A stretch of DNA of 64,000 nucleotides from an uncultured bacterium (GCA_902790465.1 CADASF010000005.1:70039-134038); one strand, 5' to 3'; shown: positions 1-36,786, numbered from the stretch's first letter. Program-made: numbers and translations. Notes: generated from the letters alone by a model not told the origin.

Positions 1-320
1 ATAAAAAAAGCAACACTACAGGTGGATGTGCTGAATTTCAGGTGGTAAATGAGATATTATTACATAATGAAAAATTTTATAGTGATAGTAAAGAAAATAA
101 TATCGATAATATCAGATTAACTTTTGCAGTTAGATTAAAACCTCAAGAAAAACTTATGTTAAAATTAATGAGAACAGGATTATTAGAAAGTACAGGATTC
201 GATGTCGAAAAAAAATGGTTTGCAATGCTTAATTATACGGCAACTGAGCATTTACCTTACTGTGATAATTGTAAATTTATGTTTGAAGGAAAGCCTACAC
301 TAAAAGAAAGTTTTATTTAA
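1..320 (+). CDS. Deaminase-fold protein (toxin-like), 5' end truncated by window edge (frame open from nt 3)
   Basis: Translation contains GGCAEFQVVNEILL ... PYCDNCKFMF. This is the same CAE / PYCxxC zinc-ligand motif pair as the four 'Deam' genes at 26-36 kb. Stop codon at 318-320. Confidence 0.6.
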   Translation, partial: KKSNTTGGCAEFQVVNEILLHNEKFYSDSKENNIDNIRLTFAVRLKPQEKLMLKLMRTGLLESTGFDVEKKWFAMLNYTATEHLPYCDNCKFMFEGKPTLKESFI

Positions 321-342
321 AATAAAAGGAGAATTTTATAAG

Positions 343-846
343 ATGAGAATATCAGAACATGATATTTATTGTTGTGAAAATTGGTGGCATGCTGTTGACA
401 AAAATGGCTATATTTTTTGTTGTATAACTTCTGGAACCCCTAATATTCCAGAATTTGCATGTTTAGATGATGATAAAAATAATTTTCTAAATAAATTTTT
501 TATATTCGATTTTGATAAAGAAAAAAATTTGGAAAATTTTGATTCAATTCCTGATGAAGTATTTAAAAAAATAATACTTGATACTTTTATAGAAGATGAT
601 AATTTTATACTTGCTCTAAAAGGTATTACTTCTTTTGATACAATAGTTAAATATCTTAACCCAAAAAGAAGAGCTGAATTTGATAAATATCCATATTGGT
701 ATAAAAAAGTGACACAACCAATTGAATTATTGCATTTCGATCAACTTCCTGAAGATATTCAAAAAATAATGGATTCCCGTAGAATGAATGATGTTGATGT
801 AACTAAAACTGATTATTTCTTTGTTCCTGCTAATCCCAATTACTAA
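343..846 (+). CDS. Cognate partner (putative immunity) protein of the deaminase-fold family
   Basis: Carries the WHAVDKNGYIFCCITSG..PEF and YPYWYKK...LHFDQLPEDIQKIMDSRRM motifs shared with 25486-26187, 28040-28516, 30557-31261 and 34929-35414. RBS AAAGGAG lies 22 nt after the upstream stop. Confidence 0.6.
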   Translation: MRISEHDIYCCENWWHAVDKNGYIFCCITSGTPNIPEFACLDDDKNNFLNKFFIFDFDKEKNLENFDSIPDEVFKKIILDTFIEDDNFILALKGITSFDTIVKYLNPKRRAEFDKYPYWYKKVTQPIELLHFDQLPEDIQKIMDSRRMNDVDVTKTDYFFVPANPNY

Positions 847-6642: not shown

Positions 6643-8016
6643 ATGGCAAAGAAAAAAGTTGAAGAACTCACAATAGAAGAAAAATTACAAAATGCACTTA
6701 TACCAGAAAAAGACCAGCCTTATAAAATCCCTCAAAATTGGTGTTGGGTAAAAATTATGAATATAGGTGAAGTAGTTACAGGAAGCACACCAAATACAAA
6801 AGAAAAATCATATTTTGGAGGAAATGTTCCCTTTATAAAACCTGCAGACATTGATCAAGGAAGATATATTATATTTTCTAAAGATACATTAAGTGAAGAA
6901 GGAAAAAATGTATCTCGTCCTGTACCTAAAGGGTCAACTTGTATATGTTGTATAGGTACAATAGGAAAATGTGGATACTTAATGGTTGATGCTGTAACCA
7001 ATCAACAAATAAACACAATTATTCCTTATAAGATAGTAAATAGCTTATTTGTTTATTATTATTGTATTAGTGATTATTTTCAATGTACCATAATTAATAA
7101 CTCTTATGCAACAACTATATTTATAATAAAAAAATCTAAAATGTCAAGTTTACCCTTTCCTCTTCCTCCATTAGCAGAACAGGAGAGGATAGCAAATAAA
7201 CTTGATAATTATATTTCTAAACTCGATGAGGCAAAAGAAAAATTAGAAAAAGTTGTTGATACTTATGAATTTAGAAAATCTGTAATTTTACACAAAGCAT
7301 TTACTGGTCAACTGACTAAAAATTGGCGAAAAGAAAATAAATTTGAATTAGATGATGATATAAAAAAGAAAGCAATAACTAAAGATTCAATGCTACCTGA
7401 TGAATATCTATATGAAATTCCTGAAAATTGGCGTTGGGTTAGATTAGGTAATATAGGAGAAATAGTTACAGGAAGTACACCCAATACAAAAGATAAATCT
7501 TATTTTGGTGGAAATGTTCCTTTTATAAAACCAGCAGAACTTGATCAAGAAGAAAATATAATATCATCTACAGAAACATTGACAGAAAAAGGCAAGAATA
7601 TTTCTCGTCCTGTTAGAAAAGGTTCAACTTGCATTTGTTGTATTGGTACAATAGGAAAATGTGGATACTTAAGAGTAGAAGCAGTCACTAATCAGCAGAT
7701 TAATACAGTAATTCCTTATGATTTTCTTGATGATTTATTTGTATATTATTATTGTTGTAGTAAGTTTTTTAAGAAAGTTATAAGAACATCAAAATTACCT
7801 TTTCCTCTTCCACCCATTGAAGAACAGAAAGAGATTGTAAAAATTCTTGATTCTTTTTTGACAAAAGAAAAACAGGTTAAAGAAATAGCAGAAAAAGAGA
7901 TAGAGAGAGTTGAGGAGCTAAGGGAAAATCTTTTAACTCGTGCATTTGGTGGAATCCTTGGAACAAATAATCCAAATGAAGAAAATTCAATCGAATTATT
8001 AAAAACAGTGCTGTAA
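6643..8016 (+). CDS. hsdS: Type I restriction-modification specificity subunit HsdS (orphan)
   Basis: Two TRDs plus central and C-terminal conserved repeats (LPFPLPPLAEQERIA / LPFPLPPIEEQKEIV). No hsdM or hsdR in the window. Confidence 0.85.
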   Translation: MAKKKVEELTIEEKLQNALIPEKDQPYKIPQNWCWVKIMNIGEVVTGSTPNTKEKSYFGGNVPFIKPADIDQGRYIIFSKDTLSEEGKNVSRPVPKGSTCICCIGTIGKCGYLMVDAVTNQQINTIIPYKIVNSLFVYYYCISDYFQCTIINNSYATTIFIIKKSKMSSLPFPLPPLAEQERIANKLDNYISKLDEAKEKLEKVVDTYEFRKSVILHKAFTGQLTKNWRKENKFELDDDIKKKAITKDSMLPDEYLYEIPENWRWVRLGNIGEIVTGSTPNTKDKSYFGGNVPFIKPAELDQEENIISSTETLTEKGKNISRPVRKGSTCICCIGTIGKCGYLRVEAVTNQQINTVIPYDFLDDLFVYYYCCSKFFKKVIRTSKLPFPLPPIEEQKEIVKILDSFLTKEKQVKEIAEKEIERVEELRENLLTRAFGGILGTNNPNEENSIELLKTVL

Positions 8017-23889: not shown

Positions 23890-25341
23890 ATGAATAAAAT
23901 ATTTAATTTTTTTCGAAATATGAGATGGAAACTCTTTTTGAGTTATTTTATTCTTGTCCTTTTTAATATATCTCTTTTGGGTTTCCTCTTTTATTTATTT
24001 ACAATGGGACATTTTATGTCAACAAGAGAATCATATCTTGAAACAGCTTCTGATTATTTTGTCAAATTTGTAACAGCAAATATGGAAAATGATGGACAGC
24101 TTATCGGAACATCAAAATTTTTTCTCAGACAAAATTGGGAAAAAATGGATTATGAACTCATTGTTTATGATAGGTCTAATCTAATTATAGCGGATTCTCG
24201 TTCACTTGATGAACAGATGGGAATTTTTTCAATGAATTCCAAGGGAGATGAAAAAATATTATCTGTTTTAAAGACTGGACGTCCTTTGTGTTGGAAGATA
24301 AAAAAAGACAGTTCTAATTTTATTTATTATGCTTGTCCTATTTTTTTTGAAACCAAAATTATTGGTGCAGTAAAAATAGGGATGACAACAGATGATTTTA
24401 ATGCTTTATTTGACATATTTAAAGATTACTTTCTTATAACTTTTATTCTGTCATTGATAGCTGCTTTGGGGCTTGCATTTATATTTGTAAGAAATATAAT
24501 GAAACCTGTCATGAAAATAAGAGATATTGCCTCAGAAATTTCACAGGGTAAATTTGAAAGCAGAGTAAATTATGATGCTATGGATGAATTGGGAGACCTA
24601 AGCAGAACGATAAATAAAATGGCAGAAGATTTAAATAAATTGGAAGAGACAAGAAATTTATTTCTTGCAAATATCTCCCATGAATTGAAAACTCCTCTTA
24701 CTATTATAAAAGGATTTGCACTGACAATGGAAGGCGATCCAGAAATAAGAGAAGATCAAAAGCATTTTCTTGAAACAATAAATAAAGAAGCAGATAGACT
24801 TACAAGGCTTGTAAATGAACTCCTTGAGTTAAGCAGATTGAAAACCAAGAAAACAGTTATGAAAATTGCTCCTTTTGATGTAAAAGAAATAATTGAAGAT
24901 GTTGTTTTCAATATGCAGACTAAGGCAGATAAATTTAACTGCACTATTTCTTGTTCATGTCCTGATAAACTTCCGCTTGTTCCTATCGATCCTGATAAAA
25001 TACATGAAGTTTTTATAAACTTGATTGACAATGCAATAAAATATTCACAAGGACATAAAGAAAAGCCTGAAGTAAAAGTTTTTGTTGAGACAACAGAAAA
25101 AGAACTCGTTGTAAAAGTCAGTGATAATGGTCCTGGAATACCACAAGCAGATTTGGATTTGATTTTTGAGAAATTCTTTAGGAGTGGAAGTAGATCGCAA
25201 AAAATCGAAGGTGTCGGTCTTGGGCTTTCAATCGTAAAAGAAATTGTAAATGCACATAATGGAAAAATATATGCCGAAAGCACAGAAGGTCAAGGCTGTA
25301 CTTTCGTAGTCAAATTGCCGTTACAACAACCCAAAAAGTAA
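23890..25341 (+). CDS. Sensor histidine kinase (2 TM, HAMP, HisKA, HATPase_c)
   Basis: H-box ISHELKTPLT. N, G1 and G2 boxes (DNAIKYS, DNGPGIP, GVGLGLSIV). Confidence 0.9.
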   Translation: MNKIFNFFRNMRWKLFLSYFILVLFNISLLGFLFYLFTMGHFMSTRESYLETASDYFVKFVTANMENDGQLIGTSKFFLRQNWEKMDYELIVYDRSNLIIADSRSLDEQMGIFSMNSKGDEKILSVLKTGRPLCWKIKKDSSNFIYYACPIFFETKIIGAVKIGMTTDDFNALFDIFKDYFLITFILSLIAALGLAFIFVRNIMKPVMKIRDIASEISQGKFESRVNYDAMDELGDLSRTINKMAEDLNKLEETRNLFLANISHELKTPLTIIKGFALTMEGDPEIREDQKHFLETINKEADRLTRLVNELLELSRLKTKKTVMKIAPFDVKEIIEDVVFNMQTKADKFNCTISCSCPDKLPLVPIDPDKIHEVFINLIDNAIKYSQGHKEKPEVKVFVETTEKELVVKVSDNGPGIPQADLDLIFEKFFRSGSRSQKIEGVGLGLSIVKEIVNAHNGKIYAESTEGQGCTFVVKLPLQQPKK

Positions 25342-25485: not shown

Positions 25486-26187
25486 TTATTTTTCACGCAT
25501 TGGCTTACAGACCAATTTATTATTTCTTGCCTCTTTATTTATAGTTCCAGAGGCATCTTTATAAATTTCTGGAATAAAAAAATATTTTGTGTTGTGAGCA
25601 TCTATTGTCATTCTGTGAGAATCCATTATTTTACGGATATTCTCAGGTAATTGATCAAAATGTATGGGATTTGTTGGATTATTTATCTTTTTATAATGAT
25701 AAGGATGATTTTTAAAATCACTTCTATCTATATTTTCTTCTTTTACTTTTAAGGTGCGGACTTGTAAACCTTGTTTTTTATTGTGTCGTTTAGTTTTTTT
25801 CTTAAATTCGATTCTATCAATATCCAAAGGTTTTATTTCTTCATAATATTCATCAATAAAAAAATAACAAAAAATATTATTTTCTTCAATCTCTACCGCA
25901 GAAAACTCACCTTGAAGAACAAATTTTGAAAAATAATCATATAAAATTTCTGACTCTGTATAGCTTTTTATGACAAATTCTGGAACATGCCAACTGTTAG
26001 TTGTACAACAAAAAATATACCCAAATTTATCTATTGCAAACCACCTAGAACCAATAACAGAGAGTTCTCCAGGTGTGATCCTATCTGTATGTGCTTCTAA
26101 TTTTGAAGCTCTATAAGTTTCATCTGGTAAATTCTCTGATGTATCTATTTCACTAAATCCATTACTCTTATTTTTCTTTTTAGTCAT
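25486..26187 (-). CDS. Partner/putative immunity protein ImmA
   Basis: 233 aa. WFAIDKFGYIFCCTT and HPYHYKK..IHFDQLPENIRKIMDSHRM motifs. RBS GAGAGG. Confidence 0.6.
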   Translation of the reverse strand: MTKKKNKSNGFSEIDTSENLPDETYRASKLEAHTDRITPGELSVIGSRWFAIDKFGYIFCCTTNSWHVPEFVIKSYTESEILYDYFSKFVLQGEFSAVEIEENNIFCYFFIDEYYEEIKPLDIDRIEFKKKTKRHNKKQGLQVRTLKVKEENIDRSDFKNHPYHYKKINNPTNPIHFDQLPENIRKIMDSHRMTIDAHNTKYFFIPEIYKDASGTINKEARNNKLVCKPMREK

Positions 26188-26311: not shown

Positions 26312-27001
26312 TTAAATATTTATAGGAATTTTAGTAGTACATTCACTTTCTCTTTTTAGAAGATGGGGAATATTTTGAAACATTCTTCGGCAAGTAGAAC
26401 AATATGGAGTATATCCCAATTTACCTTCCTCTTTATAACGAAATGCTATTGTCAATCTGATATCTCTAATATCACTACCCATATTTAAAAGAGCATTTAC
26501 TGCTCTAAATTCTGCACAACACCCTACTCTACTATTTGTACCGTCAATATATTCATTTATCTTACCTACATTTTTAGCAAGGTCTTTTACGATTTTATTA
26601 GTTCTTGGATATAAAGTTTTATGAATAAGTCTTGGAGGATAAGAATCTGAGACATCTACTTTTATATATCCTTTTTTTATATCATAGGCACCTACAAAAA
26701 CTTTTTTCTTTACTTTGTCTCCAATAAGACTTTTTACCTCATAGTAAAGTTTTCTTATTTGCTTAAAAATAATCTGCTCGTAAAACTTATTTTCGTTCCG
26801 TTCAAGTAAACATTCATACTCTGAATAAGTATATGCAGATATTTTACCTTCCACATATGCCTTAGATAAATAATCTAATATCCTATATTCATATTTTTTT
26901 ACGATATTTTCAATATCCATATTTACTTCAGGTAAATAATCAAAATCATCATACCCTGAATTGTCAAAATTTTCAAAATCATAAAAATCAAAATCGTTCA
27001 T
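26312..27001 (-). CDS. Deaminase-fold (CDA-like zinc motif) protein DeamA, putative toxin/effector
   Basis: GCCAEFRAVNALL ... TPYCSTCRRMF resembles CAER(x)A(I/V)...PCxxC of tetrameric cytidine deaminases. Confidence 0.6.
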   Translation of the reverse strand: MNDFDFYDFENFDNSGYDDFDYLPEVNMDIENIVKKYEYRILDYLSKAYVEGKISAYTYSEYECLLERNENKFYEQIIFKQIRKLYYEVKSLIGDKVKKKVFVGAYDIKKGYIKVDVSDSYPPRLIHKTLYPRTNKIVKDLAKNVGKINEYIDGTNSRVGCCAEFRAVNALLNMGSDIRDIRLTIAFRYKEEGKLGYTPYCSTCRRMFQNIPHLLKRESECTTKIPINI

Positions 27002-27090
27002 TTTAACTTTACCTGACTTTCAAAATATTCAAAAAGCGCTTTTCGTTAATGTGATTATATCAAAATAAAATAATAATGTCGTTGTCTAAA

Positions 27091-27109
27091 AGTTGCAAAA
27101 AAGTTGCAT
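27091..27109. promoter_or_regulatory. Direct-repeat operator-like motif AGTTGCAAAAAAGTTGCAT in a divergent promoter region
   Basis: The same AGTTGYA-N4/5-AGTTGCA motif is found at 29120-29149, 32100-32119, 33472-33502 and 36096-36114. Confidence 0.5.
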
Positions 27110-27168
27110 AAGGTAGTATTTTGTTTGTGTGAATTAATGATTTTACAAAATTTACAAACTGTGATATA

Positions 27169-27807
27169 ATGCAAATTGCGTATAAATCACAAAAATATTT
27201 TATTAAAGAGGTTGTAATAATGTCTGTTAGTAGAGTGAAAACTTATATTGCTGCGGATTGGGATCATGATAAGGATTTTATAAAAATATTAAAAAAAATA
27301 TTAAAAGAAATTATGTTAGAAGAAAATTCTAAAGGTAAAGATTTAAAAAAATATTTTACCGATATACATGAAAAAATACAGATAAGTGATAACAATCCTT
27401 ATTGTATCATAAAAAAATCTTTAGATAAAAGACTTAAGATGTCAAAAGTATTCATTTTAATTGTTGGAAAACATACAAATAAGCTAAAAAAGGGAATATG
27501 TAGCTTTTGCAAACATTATAATAAAAAAAGAAAGACATGCTCTATTGGCAATGATGTTGATAAGCGGAGTTATATAAAATATGAATGTTATGAAGCTATT
27601 GACAAGGAGTTAAAAATAATCGTAATTTATAAAAATTATGATGTAGATAGAAAGAAATGTCCTAAAATTTTGAGAGAGGAAGGAACTCATATTCCTGCTT
27701 ATACTTTAACAAAAAAATCCACTCAATCAATTAAAATAGATAAGAACAAATTTTTAAATTTTCCTGAAATTGTAACTGAAATAGTGGGAGCATTGTACAC
27801 AGATTAA
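27169..27807 (+). CDS. Conserved Cys-rich hypothetical protein, copy 1 (TIR-like/flavodoxin-like fold suspected)
   Basis: VKTYIAADWDHDKD N-terminal strand plus acidic loop. Cys cluster PYC..GICSFC..KTC..YEC..KKC. About 85% identical to copies at 32221 and 36175. Start possibly at 27220. Confidence 0.5.
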   Translation: MQIAYKSQKYFIKEVVIMSVSRVKTYIAADWDHDKDFIKILKKILKEIMLEENSKGKDLKKYFTDIHEKIQISDNNPYCIIKKSLDKRLKMSKVFILIVGKHTNKLKKGICSFCKHYNKKRKTCSIGNDVDKRSYIKYECYEAIDKELKIIVIYKNYDVDRKKCPKILREEGTHIPAYTLTKKSTQSIKIDKNKFLNFPEIVTEIVGALYTD

Positions 27808-27809
27808 TA

Positions 27810-27968
27810 TACAGAGGTCAAGTCATTCCAAAAGATGACTTGGTAACAGTCAGAGTTTGGGTAACCTCAAAATCAAATGATGACAAAACGATAATTTGTG
27901 ACGGTTGGTTGTCAGTAGATGGTCGAAATATCTACAAATTCTCCAACTTCGCACTAAAGATGATGTAA
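27810..27968 (+). pseudogene. FabA/FabZ-like (hotdog) C-terminal gene fragment
   Basis: ...TIICDGWLSVDGRNIYKFSNFALKMM* resembles the FabA C-terminus ...[23 protein letters not shown]. A degraded second copy is at 36790-36967. Confidence 0.35.
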
Positions 27969-28039
27969 CAGCTTATTAGTAAATAAAAAAGGCTCAGTAC
28001 TGAATTAATATCACTGAGCCTTTTTGGGGATTGGTTACT

Positions 28040-28516
28040 TTAATCTATTTTAATATTTCCTGACCAACTCTCACAAAACTCTTTATAAGCCTGATCAACA
28101 TTCATATAAACATCATGAAAAACATCTATGTCTACTCTGTGTGAGTTCATAATTTCTTGAATATTTTTTGGAAGTTGATTAAAATTCAAAGGATTTTTTG
28201 GAGAAAATTTTACAGATTTCTTATACCAATATGGATATTTAATAAAATCCTCACTTTTTGGGATTGTTTCAACTATGGCATCAAAATAGAATAAGCCTTT
28301 GCTTGCAAGAACTTCGTCGTTATCAAAATCGTCTTCATCTATTCCCAAAGTTGTGAAAAAATATTTTTCTAAAAATTCTGTTTCTTCCTTGCTTTTACAT
28401 ACAAATTCTGGAACTTTATGACTTCCTGCAGTTGTACAAGCAAAAAGAAAACCATTTTTATCAGTGCCGAACCAAAGTATGTCTTCTGTCAGAACTTCAC
28501 CTTTAGTAATTCTCAT
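28040..28516 (-). CDS. Partner/putative immunity protein ImmB
   Basis: 158 aa with family motifs WFGTDKNGFLFACTTAGSHKVPEF and YPYWYKK..LNFNQLPKNIQEIMNSHR. 4-nt gap to DeamB. RBS AAGGAGG. Confidence 0.6.
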   Translation of the reverse strand: MRITKGEVLTEDILWFGTDKNGFLFACTTAGSHKVPEFVCKSKEETEFLEKYFFTTLGIDEDDFDNDEVLASKGLFYFDAIVETIPKSEDFIKYPYWYKKSVKFSPKNPLNFNQLPKNIQEIMNSHRVDIDVFHDVYMNVDQAYKEFCESWSGNIKID

Positions 28517-28520
28517 GTTT

Positions 28521-29036
28521 TTAATCCTCCTTATCTAATATATCCTTAAACATATATTTACAATTAGGACAATAAGGTACTAATAATAATCCTTCTTTTC
28601 GAAATCTATATGCTTTAGTTAACATAAACTCTCCCATAGAATAACCTTTTTTCAACATTTTATTAACTAAACGAAATTCAGCACATTTTCCAACAATATT
28701 TTCATGTTTAGCAGGATCATTAGTAGGATTAGAAGTAAGACCAGTAGAACCTATTCCACCAATATCTTTTGCTAAGTTCACTAAATATTCGTCAATATCT
28801 TCTGGAAAATCTCCTGAATAATCAACATCAAAATTTCCAATTTTATCATAGCAACCAACATATGCTCCCTTTTTTTTATGTATTTTCATTATTCTTTTTA
28901 TTTCTTCTAAAGCATTGTTTTTAGCTACTTTACAGTTAAAATCAATATCTTCATTTTCATAGTCTTCAATTATATAGCCAGTATTCCTAAGTTCAAACCA
29001 TCTTGCTTCTATGATATGTCTAATACCTTCTAACAT
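28521..29036 (-). CDS. Deaminase-fold protein DeamB
   Basis: GKCAEFRLVNKMLKKG ... VPYCPNCKYMF. RBS AAAGGAG. Confidence 0.6.
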   Translation of the reverse strand: MLEGIRHIIEARWFELRNTGYIIEDYENEDIDFNCKVAKNNALEEIKRIMKIHKKKGAYVGCYDKIGNFDVDYSGDFPEDIDEYLVNLAKDIGGIGSTGLTSNPTNDPAKHENIVGKCAEFRLVNKMLKKGYSMGEFMLTKAYRFRKEGLLLVPYCPNCKYMFKDILDKED

Positions 29037-29069
29037 AATAAACTCCTTTAAATATGGTTTAATTATTTA

Positions 29070-29083
29070 AAAGAGCGCTCTTT
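29070..29083. promoter_or_regulatory. Leader palindrome AAAGAGCGCTCTTT just downstream of the TGATATAAT -10 box of DeamB (minus strand)
   Basis: Perfect 14-bp palindrome. Analogous palindromes at 27030-27045, 32038-32053 and 36034-36049. Confidence 0.5.
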
Positions 29084-29480
29084 ATTGAGATTAATTATAT
29101 CATAGCAAAATAAATTTGTAGTTGTTGTAATAGTTGCAAAAAGTTGCATTTAAAATTTTAGAATCTTGACAAATTATGTTATAATATTAATTGTGTAATA
29201 TTTCACAAATATTTTTTAAAGAAGAAAACAATGTTTATGTTTTTAATTTTTACTCTTGCATGTTTTATTAAAAAATTGAAAGAAAACTGTAATGTAAAAA
29301 AAAGTAATGAAGATTTCATTCGGGATTTTTTTACACAAATTTTTAAAGATATATCTTTAGATGATATAAAAGTTAGAAAAAAAGAAGAAAGATTTTAATA
29401 ATAAAAACGATGTTTTTATTTTAGGATTATATTTAGATAAATCTACAATTAGCAAATTACGAAATAATAAAATAAATATT

Positions 29481-30509
29481 TTGAAAGACCTAAAAAATAA
29501 AATATTTGATAAAAATAATAAGGATAAGATAAGTTTAAATATGGATGAATTTATTAAAGATAACATGGAATTAGCATCAATAGATAATTTAATTGAGAAA
29601 TTAAAATCTGCAATTTTAGAAGTAAAATTAACTGAAACAGAAAAAGAAAGTATTAAAAATTTTAAAATAGAAAAATATGAAGAGAAAATAAATTTTATAT
29701 ATGAAGCATTTAGAATTGCTTTAAACAAAGATAATAAACTAAAAGAAAATTCTAATTCTTTAATTTGGAAAAGAGGAAACGCTTTAGTAAATGCAATAAC
29801 TGGAGATATATTTAGCTATGGATTTAATAAAAGAAGTGAAGAGAAAAATATTGTTGTAATTCCAGTAGATACATCTTTTGAAACTCATATTACAACAAAA
29901 TTAGAAAAAGAAAAATATCCACTTGTTTCTGAAAATACAATTCACGGACAATTTCTTTCAAGAATGTACAAAACTACAGTCAAAAAAAATCCACCCCCAA
30001 AAAATGATATAGAAAGTAAGCGTAAAAGACATTATACTGAAGAAGATATTAAAAATTCAATAGAAGAATCCTTAACACTCCAAGGAATTAAGCCTTTAGG
30101 AAATAATTCTAAAAATAATCCTCTTTATCCAATTGGAACAATTGCTGTTATTGGTCATGATCTTGATACTATTGACACTATTTTTTATCTTTTAGCAATA
30201 TCACAATTTGATGAAAATAATAACGCTCAAAGCAATGAAAACAATATAAAAATAGCTATAGAAAATCTTTTAGATTTTTATAATAACAAGGGGCAAGAAT
30301 ATTCTCTATACTTGCCATTAATAGGTACAGGATTATCACGAGTTAATTTCACTAATAAGGAATCACTCGAATTTATTTTATCCACTATGATGGAAAATAA
30401 AGATAAAATACATGGAAAAATAAATATTGTTATTTCAAAAACAATACAACAACAGGAATTAGAAGAATTATATAAAGTTATTTCTGAATGGAAGAATAAA
30501 TATAAATAA
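29481..30509 (+). CDS. Macro-domain-like protein, copy 1 (apparently N-terminally disrupted relative to copy 2)
   Basis: NIVVIPVDTSFETH and LYLPLIGTGLSRV resemble macro motifs (IVNAANssL / AFPAISTGiyG). TTG start. The N-terminal homology is carried by a separate 55-aa ORF at 29232-29399. Confidence 0.4.
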   Translation: MKDLKNKIFDKNNKDKISLNMDEFIKDNMELASIDNLIEKLKSAILEVKLTETEKESIKNFKIEKYEEKINFIYEAFRIALNKDNKLKENSNSLIWKRGNALVNAITGDIFSYGFNKRSEEKNIVVIPVDTSFETHITTKLEKEKYPLVSENTIHGQFLSRMYKTTVKKNPPPKNDIESKRKRHYTEEDIKNSIEESLTLQGIKPLGNNSKNNPLYPIGTIAVIGHDLDTIDTIFYLLAISQFDENNNAQSNENNIKIAIENLLDFYNNKGQEYSLYLPLIGTGLSRVNFTNKESLEFILSTMMENKDKIHGKINIVISKTIQQQELEELYKVISEWKNKYK

Positions 30510-30514
30510 AGTAA

Positions 30515-30553
30515 AAACCTCGGTGCTGAAATGATTTTCAACACCGAGGTTTT
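30515..30553. terminator. Conserved-loop hairpin H2
   Basis: aaaacctcggtg ctgaaatgattttcaa caccgaggtttt. Confidence 0.7.
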
Positions 30554-30556
30554 TAC

Positions 30557-31261
30557 TTATCTTTCACGCATTGGCTTACAGACCAATTTATTATTTCGTG
30601 CCTCTTTATTTATAGTTCCAGATACATCTTTATAAATTTCTGGTATAAAAAAATATTTTGTATTGTGAGCATCTATTGTCATTCTGTGAGAATCCATTAT
30701 TTTGCGGATATTCTCAGGAAGTTGATCAAAATGTATGGGATTTGTCGGATTATTTATTTTTTTATAATGATAAGGATGATTTTTAAAATCACTTCTATCA
30801 ATATTTTCTTCTTTTAATTTTGAGACACGGACTTGTAAACCTTGTTTTTTATTATGTCGTTTCGTTTTTTTCTTAAATTCACTTCTATCAGTATCTAATG
30901 ATTTTATAAATTCAAAATAATATTCATCAATCAATTCATAACAAAAAATATTATTTTCTTCAATCTCTACCTCAGAGAACTCACCTTGAAGAACAAATTT
31001 TGAAAAATAATCATATAAAATTTCTGACTCTGTATAGCTTTTTATAAAAAAAACAGGAACATGCCAAGTTTTAGTATAACAACAAACAATATAACCAAAT
31101 TTATCTATAGCAAACCACATAGAGCCAAAAATAGTGAGTTCTCTTGGTGTTATTCTATCTGTATTTGCTTCTAATTTTGAAACTCTATAAGCTTCATCTT
31201 GTAAATTCTCTGATGTATCTATTTCACTAAATACATTGTTCTTATTTTTTTTCTTACTCAT
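30557..31261 (-). CDS. Partner/putative immunity protein ImmA' (about 88% identical to ImmA)
   Basis: 234 aa; same motifs as ImmA. Confidence 0.6.
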   Translation of the reverse strand: MSKKKNKNNVFSEIDTSENLQDEAYRVSKLEANTDRITPRELTIFGSMWFAIDKFGYIVCCYTKTWHVPVFFIKSYTESEILYDYFSKFVLQGEFSEVEIEENNIFCYELIDEYYFEFIKSLDTDRSEFKKKTKRHNKKQGLQVRVSKLKEENIDRSDFKNHPYHYKKINNPTNPIHFDQLPENIRKIMDSHRMTIDAHNTKYFFIPEIYKDVSGTINKEARNNKLVCKPMRER

Positions 31262-31341
31262 TTAACTCTCCTCTAAATAAGGAATAGCATATAATTTTCC
31301 ACACAATATATGCTATTCCCTGTTTTTATTCTATTTAGTTA

Positions 31342-32007
31342 TTAAAGTTCTATTTCTGTATCAGTACATTCACTTTCTCTTTTTAGGAGATGTGGATATT
31401 CTTGAAACATTTTCTGACAATTTTTACAATATGAAATAGCCACTAACTTACCGCTATCATACTGAAATGGTCTTGTGAATCTGATATCTTTAATATTACT
31501 ACCCATATTTAAAAGACCATTTATTGCTCTAAATTCTGCACAACAAGCAACAACATTGCTTCCTTGAATATGCTCATTTATCTTACCAACTTTTTTAGAA
31601 AGATCTTTTAAAATCTTATTAATTCTTGGACGAGCTTGTTCAATTTTATTAATTCTTGGAGGATAAGAATCTGAGCAATCTACTTTTATATATCCCTTTT
31701 TTTTATCATAAGCCCCTATATAAGCTTTTTTATTAGCTTCCTTACTTCCTTCAATATCCTTTACTTCCTTGTAAAGTTTTCTTATTTTTCCAAAAATAAT
31801 CTGCTCGTAAAACCTATTTTCGTCTCGTTCAAGTAAACATTCATACTTTGAATAAGTATATGCAGATATTTTACCTTCCATATATGCCTTAGATAAATCA
31901 TCTAATATCCTATATTCAAATTTTTTTACAATATTTTCAATATCCATACAGGCAGGTAAAGGTTCTAAATCCCAATACCCTGAATTGTCAAAATTAAAGT
32001 TTTCCAC
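31342..32007 (-). CDS. Deaminase-fold protein DeamA' (about 65-70% identical to DeamA)
   Basis: ACCAEFRAINGLLNMG ... SYCKNCQKMF. Start reassigned to the GTG at 32007, preceded by the GGAGGTGAAATTAAA leader identical to DeamC. The ORF-track TTG at 32040 lies inside the leader palindrome. Confidence 0.55.
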   Translation of the reverse strand: MENFNFDNSGYWDLEPLPACMDIENIVKKFEYRILDDLSKAYMEGKISAYTYSKYECLLERDENRFYEQIIFGKIRKLYKEVKDIEGSKEANKKAYIGAYDKKKGYIKVDCSDSYPPRINKIEQARPRINKILKDLSKKVGKINEHIQGSNVVACCAEFRAINGLLNMGSNIKDIRFTRPFQYDSGKLVAISYCKNCQKMFQEYPHLLKRESECTDTEIEL

Positions 32008-32220
32008 TTTAATTTCACCTCCATTTTTTAAAATATTCAAAGAGCACTCTTTGTTGAAATTATTATATCAAAGTAAAATAAATCCGTCGTTGTCTAAGAA
32101 GTTGTAAAATAGTTGCATAAGGTTGTATTTTTTGCGTTAGTTAATGATTTTACAAAATAATTGTGATATAATGCAAATTGCGTATAAATTACAAAAATAT
32201 AATTAAAGGGGGGGGGAATA

Positions 32221-32808
32221 ATGTCTGCTCGTAGAGTGAAAACTTATATTGCTGGTGATTGGGATCATGATAAGGATTTGATAGATATATTAAAAAATAT
32301 ATTAAAAGAAATTATGTTAGAAGAAAATTCTAATGGTAAAGATTTAAAATCATATTTTACCGATATACATGAGAAAATACAAATAAGTGATAACAACCCT
32401 TATTGTATTATAAAAAAATCTTTAGATGAAAGATTTGAATTGTCAAAACTATTTATTTTAATTGTTGGCGAACATACAAATAAACTAACAAAGGGAATAT
32501 GTAGTTTTTGCAAAGATTATAATAAACATAATAAGACTTGTTCTCTTAATAATAAAATTGACAAAAAAAGTTATATAAAATATGAATGTGATAAAGCTTT
32601 TGAAAATGACTTAAAAATCATTGTAATTTATAAAGATTATAATGTTGAGGAAAAAAAATGTCCTGAAATTTTGAGAGAGGAAGGAACTCATATTCCTGCT
32701 TATACTTTAACAAAAAAATCCCCTCAATCAATTAAAATAGATAAGGACAAATTTTTAAATTTTCCTGAAATTGTAACTGAAATAGTGGGAGCATTGTACA
32801 CAGATTGA
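32221..32808 (+). CDS. Conserved Cys-rich hypothetical protein, copy 2 (TIR-like?)
   Basis: MSARRVKTYIAGDWDHDKD. Promoter ttgtgatataatgc (extended -10) 45 nt upstream. Confidence 0.5.
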   Translation: MSARRVKTYIAGDWDHDKDLIDILKNILKEIMLEENSNGKDLKSYFTDIHEKIQISDNNPYCIIKKSLDERFELSKLFILIVGEHTNKLTKGICSFCKDYNKHNKTCSLNNKIDKKSYIKYECDKAFENDLKIIVIYKDYNVEEKKCPEILREEGTHIPAYTLTKKSPQSIKIDKDKFLNFPEIVTEIVGALYTD

Positions 32809-32848
32809 TAAAAATGGTGCTGTGATCAATAAATTCCCCCCATTTTTG

Positions 32849-33245
32849 AAAACAGTCATGAAGATAAGAGATATTGCCTCTGAAATTTCTCTTGGTAAAT
32901 TTGAAAGTAGATTTAATTATGAGGTCATGGACGAATTAGAATGCCATAAAATATTCACAAGGACATAAAGAAAAGCCAGAAGTCAAAGTAAATGTTGAAT
33001 TAGCAGAGAAAGAACTTATTGTAAAAGTAAGTGATAATGGACCAGGTATTCCACAAGCTGATTTGGATTTGATTTTTGAAAAGTTCTTTAGAAGTGGAAG
33101 TAGATCGCAAAAAATTGAAGGTGTAGGTCTTGGTCTTTCAATAGTTAAGGAAATTGTAAATGCTCATGACGGCAAAATATATGCAGAAAGTCCAGAGGGG
33201 CAAGGTTGCACTTTCGTAGTCAAACTGCCACTAAAGGCAAAATAA
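32849..33245 (+). pseudogene. Truncated duplicate of the 3' end of the histidine-kinase gene (internal deletion)
   Basis: ...KTVMKIRDIASEISLGKFESRFNYEVMDEL joined to ...KYSQGHKEKPEVKVNVELAEKELIVKVSDNGPGIPQADLDLIFEKFFRSGSRSQKIEGVGLGLSIVKEIVNAHDGKIYAESPEGQGCTFVVKLPL. Corresponds to HK residues about 205-235 and 375-483. Confidence 0.85.
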
Positions 33246-33260
33246 ATCTTTTGGAAAACT

Positions 33261-33300
33261 AAAAACCTCGGTGAAAAGTAATTTCCACCGAGGTTTTTTT
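33261..33300. terminator. Conserved-stem hairpin H3 (variant loop)
   Basis: aaaaacctcggtg aaaagtaatttc caccgaggttttttt. Confidence 0.7.
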
Positions 33301-33599
33301 GTGAGTAAATCTTTCTTAAAAGCTAAATTCTATGATGTTGCTTTAAATTTTTTAAAATTTTCTATAGGGTGTTTTGGTAAAGTGTTTTTGCATATTTAAA
33401 ATTTGCTATAAACTATCTGTATATTACCATTTTATCTTGGCTAGGCTAATTAGTAGTTTAAAACACACTTTAGTTGTAGAAAAAGTTGCAAAAAACTTGC
33501 ATTTTGTTTTTTATGATTCTACAATATTTACAAAATTTCCAAATTGTGCAATAATTCAAATAGTGTACTATTACACAATTATTTTTTAGGAGGAAAAAA

Positions 33600-34844
33600 A
33601 TGTTCATTTTTTATACTTTTGCATGTTTCATTAGAAGTTTAATGGATAATTGGAATGTACAACCATACCAAGAAAAAATTATAAATAGCTTATTTAAAGC
33701 ATATATAGGGGATAAGAATTATAATGATTCATATTATTTACAGCCAGAAACAGTTAGTAAAGTTATGAAGAATAGTATAAACCTTCCAAATTTTGTAAAA
33801 GGAATAACTTCTGATGAAGACTATGATACAAAAATTTATTCTGCTATGTATAATTTTATTTTAGAAAATATTAATTCAATAGATAATTTAATTGATGAAT
33901 TAAAATCTGCTATTTTAGAAGCAGAAAATTTAAGTGAAACAGAAAAAGAAACTATTAAAAATTTAAAAACAGAAAAAAAAGAAGATAAAATAAATTTCAT
34001 ATGTGAAGCATTTAGAATTGCTTTAAAAAATGATAATAAACTAAAGATAGACCATAATTTAATTTGGAGAGGAAAAAATTCAGTAAATGCAATAATTGGA
34101 GATTTATTTAGCTATGGATTTAATAAAAGAAGAGAATGCAAAAATATTGTTGTAATTCCAGTTGATACATCTTTTGAAACCCATATTACAACAAAATTAG
34201 AAAAAGAAAAATATCCACTTGTTTCTGAAAAAACAATTCACGGAAAATTTCTTTCAAGGATGTATAAAATTACTGTAAAAAAAGAACCTCTACTAAAAAA
34301 TGATACGGAAAGTAAGCGTAAGAGATGTTATACTGAAGAAGGTATTAAAAATTTAATAGAAAACAACTTAAAAGAACAAGGAATCGAGCCTTCAGGAAAT
34401 AATTCTAAAAATAAGCCTCTATATCCAATTGGAACAATTGCTGTTATTTATCATCTTAATACCATTTTTTATCTTTTAGCTATATCAGAATTTGATGAAA
34501 ATAATAATGCTCAAAGTAATGAAAAAAATATAAAAATAGCAATAGAAAATCTTTTGGAATTTTATGATAAAAAAGGGCAAGGGTATTCTTTGTATCTGCC
34601 ATTAATAGGAACAGGATTATCACGAGTTCGTTCATCATCTGAAAAAATATCCAAAATGTCCCCCTCAATAGTTTGTTTATCTCCTAAAGAATCCTTTGAA
34701 TGTATTTTATCTACAATTATGGAAAAAACAGATAAGATATTAGGAGAAATAAATATTGTTATTTGGAAAGAAATACACCCAGAGCATTTGGAAGAGATAA
34801 ATTTATTTTTGAATACACTCAGAAAATCTGAAAAATTAAAATAA
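33600..34844 (+). CDS. Macro-domain-like protein, copy 2 (full length, 414 aa)
   Basis: NIVVIPVDTSFETHITT and LYLPLIGTGLSRV. About 75% identical to copy 1 with two indels. Confidence 0.45.
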   Translation: MFIFYTFACFIRSLMDNWNVQPYQEKIINSLFKAYIGDKNYNDSYYLQPETVSKVMKNSINLPNFVKGITSDEDYDTKIYSAMYNFILENINSIDNLIDELKSAILEAENLSETEKETIKNLKTEKKEDKINFICEAFRIALKNDNKLKIDHNLIWRGKNSVNAIIGDLFSYGFNKRRECKNIVVIPVDTSFETHITTKLEKEKYPLVSEKTIHGKFLSRMYKITVKKEPLLKNDTESKRKRCYTEEGIKNLIENNLKEQGIEPSGNNSKNKPLYPIGTIAVIYHLNTIFYLLAISEFDENNNAQSNEKNIKIAIENLLEFYDKKGQGYSLYLPLIGTGLSRVRSSSEKISKMSPSIVCLSPKESFECILSTIMEKTDKILGEINIVIWKEIHPEHLEEINLFLNTLRKSEKLK

Positions 34845-34865
34845 TCAATCAATAATTTATTATAA

Positions 34866-34908
34866 ACAAACCTCGGTGCTGAAATGATTTTCAACAACGA
34901 GGTTTTTA
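34866..34908. terminator. Conserved-loop hairpin H4 (one stem mismatch)
   Basis: aaacctcggtg ctgaaatgattttcaa caacgaggttttt. Confidence 0.65.
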
Positions 34909-34928
34909 GTTAAAATAATATTATGATT

Positions 34929-35414
34929 TTACTCTTTATAAATAGGTGGAACAAAAAAATATTTTATTTGGCGAGAATCAATTTGAATTTTATGATAATT
35001 CATTATATTTTGAATATTTTTAGGAAGTTGATTAAAATGTAAAGGTTTTTTGGGGAATGTAAGTTTTTTATACCAATAGGGATGAATCTCAAAATCTTTT
35101 TCATTATCTATTGTCTCATATTTAATGATAGAATCAAAAGAACTAATGCCTCTATCTAAAAGAATGACATCTTCCTCACCTATTAAATCATAGTCTAATT
35201 CATAAGAAAATTTTTCTATTTTTATATCTAAATTTGAAAATTCAGAACTAAATAAAAAAAAATTTTCTAAAACGCAAGTATTTTCTTGGCTTTTACATAC
35301 AAATTCTGGAACATTAAATGTTCCTGCGGATGTACAAGAAAAAACATAGCCATTTTTATCAATAGCAAACCATCTAATATCATTACAGAAAAGGTCTTCT
35401 TCGCTAAATCTCAT
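34929..35414 (-). CDS. Partner/putative immunity protein ImmC
   Basis: 161 aa. WFAIDKNGYVFSCTSAGTFNVPEF and HPYWYKK..LHFNQLPKNIQNIMNYHK. 5-nt gap to DeamC. RBS AAGGAGG. Confidence 0.6.
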   Translation of the reverse strand: MRFSEEDLFCNDIRWFAIDKNGYVFSCTSAGTFNVPEFVCKSQENTCVLENFFLFSSEFSNLDIKIEKFSYELDYDLIGEEDVILLDRGISSFDSIIKYETIDNEKDFEIHPYWYKKLTFPKKPLHFNQLPKNIQNIMNYHKIQIDSRQIKYFFVPPIYKE

Positions 35415-35419
35415 CTTTA

Positions 35420-36001
35420 TTAATCCTCCTTTAGTATTTCCATTCCTTCAAACATTTTTAAGCAATTGGGACAATATGGCACTATATCCCAACCCCAATT
35501 TTTTATTCTAACTGCTTTAATTAATCTAATTGCTTCTATATTACTACCTTGCCATAGCAATTTATTGACTACATGGAATTCAGCACATCTACCAACTTTA
35601 TTAAAAGTATTTTTTTCTCCTGTAATTTTTAATTCTTTTTCAATTTTATTAGAAGTATCTGTTTCTTCTTTCCTTGTAATTTTTAATCCTTTATCTTTCA
35701 TAATTTTTTTTAATTCGTCATGAATATCTTTGTCTGCGGGTGGACTTCTTGAATAATCTGCACAAGCATTTCCAGTATCTATATCATATCCTCCAATATA
35801 AACAGCAGGATTTTCATATTTCATTTTTATTCCATTTTTTCTATTATTTTCTCTTATTTTTTTAAAATCATCTATTTTCTTGTTTATTTCTTCTTCAGCT
35901 TTTTTTTCGTATGTTGCATTTTCTGTTCGTTCTTGTATATATATATTGTCATAATTTTTATATAAAAGTATTGGGTATTTAAAATGTTTGAAATATTTCA
36001 T
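35420..36001 (-). CDS. Deaminase-fold protein DeamC
   Basis: GRCAEFHVVNKLLWQG ... VPYCPNCLKMF. RBS GGAGGTG 8 nt upstream. Confidence 0.6.
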   Translation of the reverse strand: MKYFKHFKYPILLYKNYDNIYIQERTENATYEKKAEEEINKKIDDFKKIRENNRKNGIKMKYENPAVYIGGYDIDTGNACADYSRSPPADKDIHDELKKIMKDKGLKITRKEETDTSNKIEKELKITGEKNTFNKVGRCAEFHVVNKLLWQGSNIEAIRLIKAVRIKNWGWDIVPYCPNCLKMFEGMEILKED

Positions 36002-36174
36002 TTTAATTTCACCTCCAATTTTTTTTTAATATTCAAAAAGCACTTTTCGTTGATGTTATTATATCAAAGTAAAATAAATCCGTCGTTGTCTAAGAAGTTG
36101 TAAAATAGTTGCATAAGGTTGTATTTTTTGCGTTAGTTAATGATTTTACAAAATAAATTGTGATATAATGCAAA

Positions 36175-36786
36175 TTGCGTATAAATTACAAAAATATAAT
36201 TAAAGGGGTTGTAAAAATGATTGTTGATAGAATAAAAACTTATATAGCTGGAGATTGGGATAACGATAAGGATTTTATAAAAATATTAAAAAAAATATTA
36301 AAAGGAATTATTTTAGAAGAAAATTATAAAGGTAAAGATTTTAAAAAAAAATTTACCGATATACATGAAAAAATACAGATAAGTGATGACAACCCTTATT
36401 GTATTATAAAAAAATCTTTAGATGAAAGATTTGAACGATCAAAACTATTTATTTTAATTGTTGGAAAACATACAAATAAGCTAAAAAAGGGAATATGTAG
36501 TTTTTGCAAACATTATAATAAAAAAAGAAAGACATGCTCTATTGATAATGATGTTGATAAGCGGAGCTATATAAAATATGAATGTGATAAAGCTTTTGAA
36601 AATGACTTAAAAATAATCGTAATTTATAAAGATTATAAGGTAGAAAGAAAAAAATGTCCTAAAATTTTGAGAGAGGAAGGAACTCATATTCCTGCTTATA
36701 CTTTAACAAAAAAATCCCCTCAATCAATTAAAATAGATAAGAACAAATTTTTAAATTTTCCTGAAATTGTAGCTGAAATAGCGTGA
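36175..36786 (+). CDS. Conserved Cys-rich hypothetical protein, copy 3 (TIR-like?). Premature stop relative to copies 1 and 2.
   Basis: MIVDRIKTYIAGDWDNDKD. Ends ...EIVAEIA*, 5 codons earlier than the other copies. Start probably at 36217. Confidence 0.45.
   Translation: MRINYKNIIKGVVKMIVDRIKTYIAGDWDNDKDFIKILKKILKGIILEENYKGKDFKKKFTDIHEKIQISDDNPYCIIKKSLDERFERSKLFILIVGKHTNKLKKGICSFCKHYNKKRKTCSIDNDVDKRSYIKYECDKAFENDLKIIVIYKDYKVERKKCPKILREEGTHIPAYTLTKKSPQSIKIDKNKFLNFPEIVAEIA

Follow-up and report, generated by a model that had tools for sequence, protein, structure and literature searches.

Candidate Thoeris genes interleaved with deaminase toxin-like gene pairs in an uncultured bacterium

Gene content of the locus

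The DNA analysed here (the window) is a 64,000-nt stretch from an uncultured bacterium, and all positions are counted from its first nucleotide. Between 25.4 and 36.8 kb, four pairs of small genes alternate with genes of two accessory families, a Cys-rich family and a macro-domain-like family, which profile matches identify as ThsB and ThsA, the two components of Thoeris defence systems. Each pair consists of a small protein with CAE...PYCxxC deaminase motifs (D) and a partner encoded 3′ of it (A). These genes fill an 11.3-kb block with a G+C content of 25–27%, compared with about 30–32% in the immediate flanks; the block lies between a two-component system, whose histidine kinase gene ends at position 25341, and a metallophosphoesterase-like gene and metG, which start from 37036. 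Reading from the left, A1 and D1 diverge from ThsB-1, A2 and D2 from ThsA-1, and A3 and D3 from ThsB-2; then come a kinase-gene fragment and ThsA-2, and finally A4 and D4, which diverge from ThsB-3. The five accessory genes (three ThsB and two ThsA) are all on the plus strand. Intact open reading frames (ORFs) with preserved catalytic motifs are found for 12 of the 13 genes, and direct repeats of up to 300 nt, at 87–96% identity and far above chance, recur across the block. The initial annotation, made from the window alone, had placed one of the accessory genes in the divergent slot of every module; this arrangement is found for four of the five genes and fails for ThsA-2, upstream of which there is a copy of the 3′ end of a kinase gene and no deaminase pair.

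Based on its profile matches, the Cys-rich family is Thoeris ThsB. ThsB-1 (27220–27807, plus strand, 195 aa, with a Cys-rich insert), ThsB-2 (32221–32808, plus strand, 195 aa) and ThsB-3 (36217–36786, plus strand, 189 aa) all match the PADLOC ThsB model PDLC00427 over nearly its full length (E = 3.5e-46, 2.2e-47 and 9.4e-48, respectively) and score 30.4, 20.8 and 26.1 bits against the Pfam family PF08937 (ThsB_TIR), whose cut-off of 21.2 bits is narrowly missed by ThsB-2. Thus the TIR-like character that the initial annotation had suspected is borne out by both profiles, as are the three copies at about 85% identity (82–83% to the first copy, with a mean column identity of 87%) and the N-terminal motif KTYIAGDWDHDKD. 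The sizes given there, 195–212 aa, have to be revised: the reading frames are open from 27169 and 36175 in ThsB-1 and ThsB-3, and homologous gene calls together with ribosome-binding sites suggest starts at 27220 and 36217, so that the three proteins would measure 195, 195 and 189 aa. All members of the family keep a CxxC...C...C set and a Y-E pair, the latter within an S.(Y/F)(I/V).YE motif. By analogy, the glutamate of this pair may be the TIR catalytic residue, while the cysteines resemble a zinc site and would constitute one. Compared with the ThsB proteins of other loci, those of the window have an additional 9-aa insertion (EIMLEENSN/K) and a longer C-terminal tail. A PDB sequence search with the ThsB profile gave no significant match.

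Profile matches likewise assign the macro-like family to Thoeris ThsA, with the macro domain at the C-terminus. Both ThsA-1 (29231–30509, plus strand) and ThsA-2 (33600–34844, plus strand, 414 aa, intact) comprise a helical N-terminal domain (N-domain; residues 1–153 in ThsA-2) followed by the macro domain. They match PF20016 (ThsA_Macro) with E-values of 3e-32 and 2e-28, the two macro-like proteins match PADLOC ThsA with 1.7e-52 and 1.6e-48, and the family gives weak but specific matches, over the GTG-loop region, to the solved ThsA macro domains 9uuz, 8r66 and 8v6q. The macro-domain resemblance and the guess of a Thoeris-type system, which had been drawn from short motifs, are therefore upheld by Pfam and PADLOC. 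The two proteins are 71% identical and share NIVVIPVDTSFE and LPLIGTGLSRV, as first described; however, of the lengths reported initially (340–414 aa), the shorter belongs to the 3′ part of a frameshifted gene. The largest ORF of ThsA-1 (29481–30509, 342 aa, TTG start) is preceded, according to three-frame translation, by 53 codons in another frame that begin at 29231, and the shift lies in an A7 run at 29377–29383. DNA alignment with a sister contig (L002) shows an A6 run at this point and an intact gene of 421 aa. The extra A could mark a pseudogene that has become fixed, a phase-variable gene or an assembly error that recurs. The same split into 53 and 342 aa is seen in another assembly (L012). 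As for ThsA-2, a 15-aa insertion, SSSEKISKMSPSIVC, is located at 34620–34670 (residues ~342–356), after the ligand-loop motif GTGLSRV; relatives vary in length here (KISKMSKMSPS in L002, PKESFLPKESF in P0009), which looks like the expansion of a short repeat.

The N-domain distinguishes the window proteins from the ThsA of type II Thoeris. A Kyte-Doolittle scan detected no transmembrane (TM) segment in the window ThsA: the N-terminal 19-residue hydropathy does not exceed 1.38, and the only windows above 1.6 fall inside the macro domain. Two TM-like windows are present in none of 38 long-type ThsA homologues (~360–420 aa, soluble N-domain), as opposed to 18 of 22 short-type homologues (~290 aa, TM helices). 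The N-domain of ThsA-2 is modelled by AlphaFold2, from a 25-sequence alignment, as a soluble bundle that is entirely helical, with eight helices (predicted local distance difference test score, pLDDT, 92; predicted template modelling score 0.88); this domain has no match in the PDB. Its charge is uneven, the first 75 residues being basic (median isoelectric point 9.0) and the remainder acidic (median 4.6). Since no long-type ThsA homologue was found in a phage collection, and plasmids gave one remote macro match only, a phage or plasmid location is not supported.

The deaminase-like genes D1 (26312–27001, 229 aa, with the CAE and PYCxxC zinc/catalytic motifs), D2 (28521–29036, 171 aa), D3 (31342–32040, 232 aa from a TTG codon, called as 221 aa in sister contigs) and D4 (35420–36001, 193 aa) are all on the minus strand. 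The C-A-E and C..C residues are invariant in their alignment and in 67 relatives, and pairwise identity among the four is 35–68%. The window deaminases have no family above threshold in Pfam, NCBIfam, PHROGs or PADLOC and no significant match in the PDB; D2 gives a weak match to PF14431 (YwqJ-deaminase; E = 0.31, 11.7 bits against a cut-off of 25.9). A k-mer-seeded homology search returned only 5 near relatives, and an exhaustive HMMER profile search with the deaminase core returned 222. A Pfam scan of 67 of these 222 identified RHS repeats in 6, YwqJ-deaminase in 6 (6/67 at E ≤0.001), PT-HINT in 3, and PT-VENN and a haemagglutinin repeat in 1 each. Furthermore, the homologue in contig L020, which is linked to a DUF4417 gene (see below), scores 25.9 bits against PF14431, exactly the cut-off. 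These relatives place the deaminase domain of the window in the YwqJ-like clade of polymorphic-toxin deaminases, although, because their scores stay under the gathering threshold, the window proteins form a sister clade and are not members of PF14431. They stand alone, with a helical leader of 55–100 aa that has no Pfam domain and differs from the MSKxxSGxFxGTxG leader described below; neither a secretion or trafficking domain on them nor a full-length toxin gene nearby was found. A fifth deaminase (3–317, plus strand), whose 5′ end is cut by the start of the window, carries CAEF...PYCDNC and is recognised by the deaminase hidden Markov models (HMMs) built here (E = 1.7e-12 and 4.3e-19). It has an insertion between CAE and PYCxxC and lies 25 kb from the Thoeris cluster.

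A partner gene starts 4–124 nt downstream of each deaminase. A1 (25486–26187, minus strand, 233 aa) is 87% identical to A3 (30557–31261, minus strand, 234 aa) and 44–48% identical to A2 (28040–28516, minus strand, 158 aa, starting 4 nt after D2) and A4 (34929–35414, minus strand, 161 aa); overall, the partners are 43–87% identical to each other. The fifth partner (343–846, plus strand, 167 aa; partner HMM E = 2.9e-48) has no adjoining ThsA or ThsB. The family has 30 homologues. The window partners belong to no Pfam, NCBIfam, PHROGs or PADLOC family and found nothing significant in a PDB sequence search, and the AlphaFold2 model of A1, from a 4-sequence alignment, reached a pLDDT of 35 with no fold assigned. 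More is learned from the contexts of the homologues. Tandem arrays of two or three paralogues, with no detectable deaminase, occur in L027–L030 (5374–7239) and L017 (31–1469). On human-gut contigs, a CdiA_C toxin gene is followed by a long array of small genes that includes a partner, whose neighbours are Imm11 genes and, directly before it, an orphan C-terminal deaminase fragment. The partner thus behaves like an immunity family, and neutralisation of the deaminase would be its putative role. The array of L027 is located downstream of an unannotated 582-aa protein. In the window, a terminator-like hairpin with a 20-bp stem (30510–30557) separates the convergent ThsA-1 and A3.

The block has been rearranged. 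The kinase-gene fragment between ThsB-2 and ThsA-2 (32933–33229, plus strand) is 86% identical to the 3′ end of the flanking histidine kinase gene (25023–25319) and is a rearrangement scar; it suggests that ThsA-2 and the kinase gene were formerly contiguous and that the insertion or duplication of the modules is a later event. The same organisation is found in several independent assemblies. In a sister-organism contig (L006, 893–1384, minus strand), all that lies between ThsB and ThsA is two fragments of a partner gene, without a deaminase, which documents the loss of a toxin pair from a module. Nearly identical contigs are found in rumen metagenomes, the closest named bins being a metagenome-assembled genome (MAG) of a ruminal Candidatus Xenobia (phylum Vulcanimicrobiota) and the unclassified rumen MAG RUG13696; the window lineage is probably a rumen bacterium related to Candidatus Xenobia.

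Linkage of long-type ThsA to DUF4417 and toxin cassettes

The surroundings of ThsA were compared across 69 metagenomic loci, retrieved by a contig scan with a 36-sequence ThsA alignment and annotated with HMMs built here. Among the long-type loci with at least 900 nt upstream of thsA (n = 34), a DUF4417 gene lies within 3 kb of thsA in 34/34, although the long-type ThsA proteins of these loci are only 34–46% identical to the query. It is divergent from and adjacent to thsA in 31 of them; L045 and L049 missed the adjacency test only through stop-to-stop ORFs that overlap thsA, and in L061 the gene is downstream. Near TM-type ThsA, DUF4417 was found in 0/18 loci (Fisher p ~4e-13 against 34/34, counts taken without phylogenetic correction). 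DUF4417, which is common in phages and uncharacterised (10.1101/2025.10.10.680097), matches PHROG 940, a phage family annotated as a nuclease; a PDB sequence search with its profile gave nothing significant.

Downstream of the DUF4417 gene, whose stop codon often overlaps the next start codon, lies a gene for a small protein with an N-terminal MSKxxSGxFxGTxG leader and a variable toxin domain. This domain is a YwqJ-like deaminase in 11/29 loci, with the partner family next in 8/29; in Lachnospira multipara (FNUL01000007, locus L010), where thsA and thsB lie opposite a DUF4417, toxin and immunity gene series, it is a PBECR1-type RNase, and other domains are found elsewhere. The gene after the toxin is small and immunity-like. 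For instance, one Clostridia-type locus, represented by four contigs, has ThsA (372 aa) followed by ThsB on one strand and, divergent from them, DUF4417, deaminase and partner in this order. The leader is common to toxins with differing C-terminal domains (L010, L019–L022 and L031–L071, 3′ of DUF4417), which suggests that it and DUF4417 work together. No DUF4417 was found in any frame of the window; because the window is without both, its lineage appears to have lost DUF4417 and the MSK leader jointly.

The association of deaminases with Thoeris genes recurs in unrelated contigs of Clostridia and Lachnospiraceae type, from gut and rumen metagenomes. In the relatives, thsB directly follows thsA in a compact two-gene operon; in the window, thsA and thsB are separate transcription units, 1.7–3.5 kb apart, with the deaminase pairs interleaved. 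Solo deaminase/partner pairs without adjoining Thoeris genes also occur, namely at 3–846 of the window and in L013, after the prs and L25 genes. The pair of L001 was considered as a further solo case and rejected: the 228-nt stub upstream of it is a copy of the divergent promoter block, truncated where the contig ends, and hence the pair gives no evidence for autonomy.

The divergent regulatory regions

The intergenic blocks that precede the accessory genes are conserved in all five modules of the window. Each contains a promoter-like site on the minus strand (good extended -10, weak ACGACA as -35), GTTG-core direct repeats 11 nt apart immediately upstream of this -35, and a strong plus-strand promoter for thsA or thsB. 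Thus, region 1 (27002–27219) has TATAAT, 17 nt and ACGACA on the minus strand, the repeats AGTTGCAAAAAAGTTGCA at 27091–27108, and TTTACA-17-TGTGATATAAT on the plus strand at 27142–27170. Region 2 (29037–29230) carries the repeat variant TAGTTGCAAAAAGTTGCAT at 29131–29149 and a promoter at 29157–29185, while the repeats of region 3 (32041–32220) and region 5 (36002–36216) are at 32100–32117 and 36096–36113, respectively. The region upstream of ThsA-2 (33440–33599), on whose other side there is no deaminase pair, has its repeats at 33484–33501 and its promoter at 33527–33555. The window has 4 occurrences of AGTTGYAAAAWAGTTGCA, where 0.02 would be expected, and a variant of it is present in the fifth module. 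Spacing of one helical turn beside a poor -35 is the classic position of activator sites.

A comparable element is found in the loci where DUF4417 and thsA diverge: just upstream of thsA, a GTCGTT box is followed by 3–6 tandem repeats with a period of 10–11 nt and a GTT-type core, whose sequence differs from locus to locus (GTTGTGAT, GTTTTGA, GTTCCGAT, GTTACG, CTTGCAAAA). Arrays of three or more copies are usual in long-type loci, most of which have them just upstream of thsA, and occur at chance level in TM-type loci. The solo pair of L013 has two 11-nt-spaced repeats of its own (TGGCAAG...TGGCAAT, 7290–7330) upstream of a GACAAC -35-like box; therefore, the repeat element travels with the toxin promoter even when no Thoeris gene is adjacent.

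Interpretation and alternatives

With moderate confidence, we read the locus as an amplified and rearranged Thoeris-type system, built on a subtype of ThsA that has lost the two pore-forming TM helices of type II systems, has a soluble helical N-domain in their place and is genetically coupled to a toxin–immunity cassette. The window probably holds an amplified, partly decayed derivative of this subtype, without DUF4417. We infer that the linkage reflects functional coupling, the toxin cassette supplying the killing that the TM helices supply in type II systems.

Type II Thoeris combines a ThsB TIR protein with a TM-macro ThsA (also called ThsC) and uses a His-ADP-ribose (His-ADPR) signal; its ThsA has two N-terminal TM helices and a macro domain, and when the ligand makes it oligomerise, the helices cluster and the membrane is damaged (10.1101/2024.01.03.573942; PMC11204291). 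The window resembles it in that the ThsB family is the same, the ThsB HMM built here recognising the proteins of TM-type loci with E-values of 1e-33 to 1e-41 at 35–41% identity, in that the macro domains are homologous and keep the GTG(L/R)SR loop, and in that there are several ThsB copies per locus, a known trait of Thoeris (PMC11204291). As the ThsB family is shared with TM-macro loci, His-ADPR is at most a plausible signal here. The differences are that the window ThsA has a soluble helical domain of ~150–180 aa instead of the two TM helices, that its thsA and thsB do not form one operon, and that long-type loci always come with a toxin–immunity cassette (with DUF4417 in relatives).

The coupled system would work as follows. 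Upon infection, which ThsB would sense, this protein would make an ADP-ribose-derived signal, as expected from its family; the macro domain of ThsA would bind the signal and oligomerise, as type II ThsA does; and the output would be the neighbouring YwqJ-like deaminase toxin, otherwise restrained by its immunity-type partner. The likeliest route from receptor to toxin may be control of the toxin promoter, whose weak -35 borders on the 10–11-nt tandem repeats that it has in common with the thsA/thsB promoter region; signal-bound ThsA might instead act on the toxin/immunity complex. A link at the DNA level is favoured by the fact that the repeats and the ThsA N-domain were kept in the window lineage despite the loss of DUF4417 and of the toxin leader, and by the basic character of the first half of the N-domain. 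A comparable idea is found in other nucleotide-signalling defences, which include signal-binding sensors fused to transcription regulators, such as the CARF-HTH protein Csa3 of type III CRISPR. ThsA would be similar in joining a second-messenger-binding domain to a non-enzymatic terminal domain beside a promoter with operator-like repeats; unlike Csa3, its N-domain has no DNA-binding fold that we could find, and the analogy is a mechanistic one only.

Several observations weigh against this reading. Contact of ThsA with DNA, toxin or immunity protein is hypothetical, and, against the DNA-level route in particular, no DNA-binding fold was detected in the N-domain. Because solo pairs exist (window 3–846 and L013), deaminase/partner pairs can be autonomous modules. 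As the immunity gene is co-transcribed with the toxin gene, simple induction would not obviously kill. The real effector may be DUF4417, which heads the common toxin operon, matches the nuclease-annotated PHROG 940 and is missing from the window. Part of the locus may be decaying, given the frameshift in ThsA-1 and the kinase-gene fragment. Finally, the linkage counts are not phylogenetically independent.

Accordingly, two independent systems might simply share a defence island or mobile unit: a self-sufficient Thoeris, with the helical N-domain of ThsA as its effector, and hitch-hiking toxin–immunity modules. The solo pairs agree with this, as do the partner-only arrays, the polymorphic-toxin contexts and the compact thsA-thsB operon of relatives, and no biochemical link between the two is known. 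However, such independence would leave unexplained a linkage that is kept, without exception on either side (34/34 against 0/18), among ThsA proteins as divergent as those described above, the appearance of the toxin cassette exactly where the TM effector module is lost, and the conserved repeat element common to both divergent transcription units. We regard it as a serious but rather unlikely explanation. Somewhat more doubtful still, as a specific extension of the coupled reading, is the proposal of a new Thoeris type whose effector is an interchangeable polymorphic toxin–immunity cassette outside ThsA, with a deaminase as its toxin here and an RNase or others elsewhere, and in which the TIR-made signal makes the TM-less macro receptor oligomerise and bind the 10–11-nt tandem repeats next to the toxin promoter.

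The deaminase/partner pairs could also be orphan interbacterial polymorphic-toxin cassettes, a reservoir of toxin tips and immunities that serves competition between bacteria and takes no part in phage defence. YwqJ-like deaminase toxins of polymorphic toxin systems (PF14431), with immunity genes downstream, are reportedly a class in the scheme of Iyer, Zhang and Aravind. The pairs of the window share with them the CAE...PCxxC core, relatives located C-terminally in RHS, PT-HINT, VENN and haemagglutinin-repeat proteins, and an immediately 3′ immunity-like gene whose family is also found in immunity arrays, including those 3′ of CdiA_C toxins; moreover, the pairs have diversified strongly (35–68% identity) while ThsB has stayed 82–83% identical. 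On the other hand, the window deaminases are complete small genes (171–232 aa) with their own promoters and start codons, have neither a secretion or trafficking domain nor a full-length toxin gene nearby, and are each joined to a divergent Thoeris gene by a conserved promoter block, so that we consider a mere reservoir very improbable. That the whole locus is a decaying, non-functional remnant of segmental duplication, its arrangement without present function, is very improbable: the ThsA-1 frameshift, the kinase-gene fragment, the insertion in the ThsA-2 macro domain and the partner remnants between ThsB and ThsA in L006 would fit it, but 12 of the 13 genes are intact with conserved catalytic motifs, the organisation is kept in several independent assemblies, and the promoter blocks are conserved.

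Returning to the coupled Thoeris-type system, it may also be compared with toxin–antitoxin modules that act by abortive infection, such as DarTG and ToxIN. By analogy, both would have a toxin/neutraliser gene pair in a defence context, with a toxin that probably attacks nucleic acids; they would differ in that the neutraliser here comes from a polymorphic-toxin immunity family and in that the putative trigger is a TIR-made signal and not antitoxin decay.

The initial annotation had taken the interleaving with deaminases to be meaningful and undescribed, and its recurrence in unrelated contigs speaks for this view. Our literature search found nothing that links Thoeris to deaminase toxins, polymorphic toxins or DUF4417; a 2025 survey of 29 effector types does not contain the word 'deaminase' in its main text, nor 'deaminase' or 'DUF4417' in its supplements. 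Thus, ThsA and ThsB are of known kinds, while a TM-less ThsA subtype with an obligatory toxin cassette is undescribed in the Thoeris literature that we found. Since both the ThsA and the ThsB models match, annotation tools would file the locus as type II Thoeris and miss the lost membrane effector and the attached toxin–immunity operon. The locus also raises the question of how a macro-domain receptor that has neither a membrane domain nor an enzymatic one passes its signal on. If the promoter-binding reading is true, TIR signalling would have a transcriptional (or adaptor-mediated) output, and this would be its first link to a polymorphic-toxin effector. If the coupling is real, it would reveal a Thoeris architecture whose killing module can be swapped like a polymorphic toxin, would assign a function to DUF4417 and to the stand-alone deaminase/immunity pairs, which form a large family, and would make uncultured bacteria of rumen and gut a source of new small nucleic-acid deaminases and of the proteins that naturally inhibit them.

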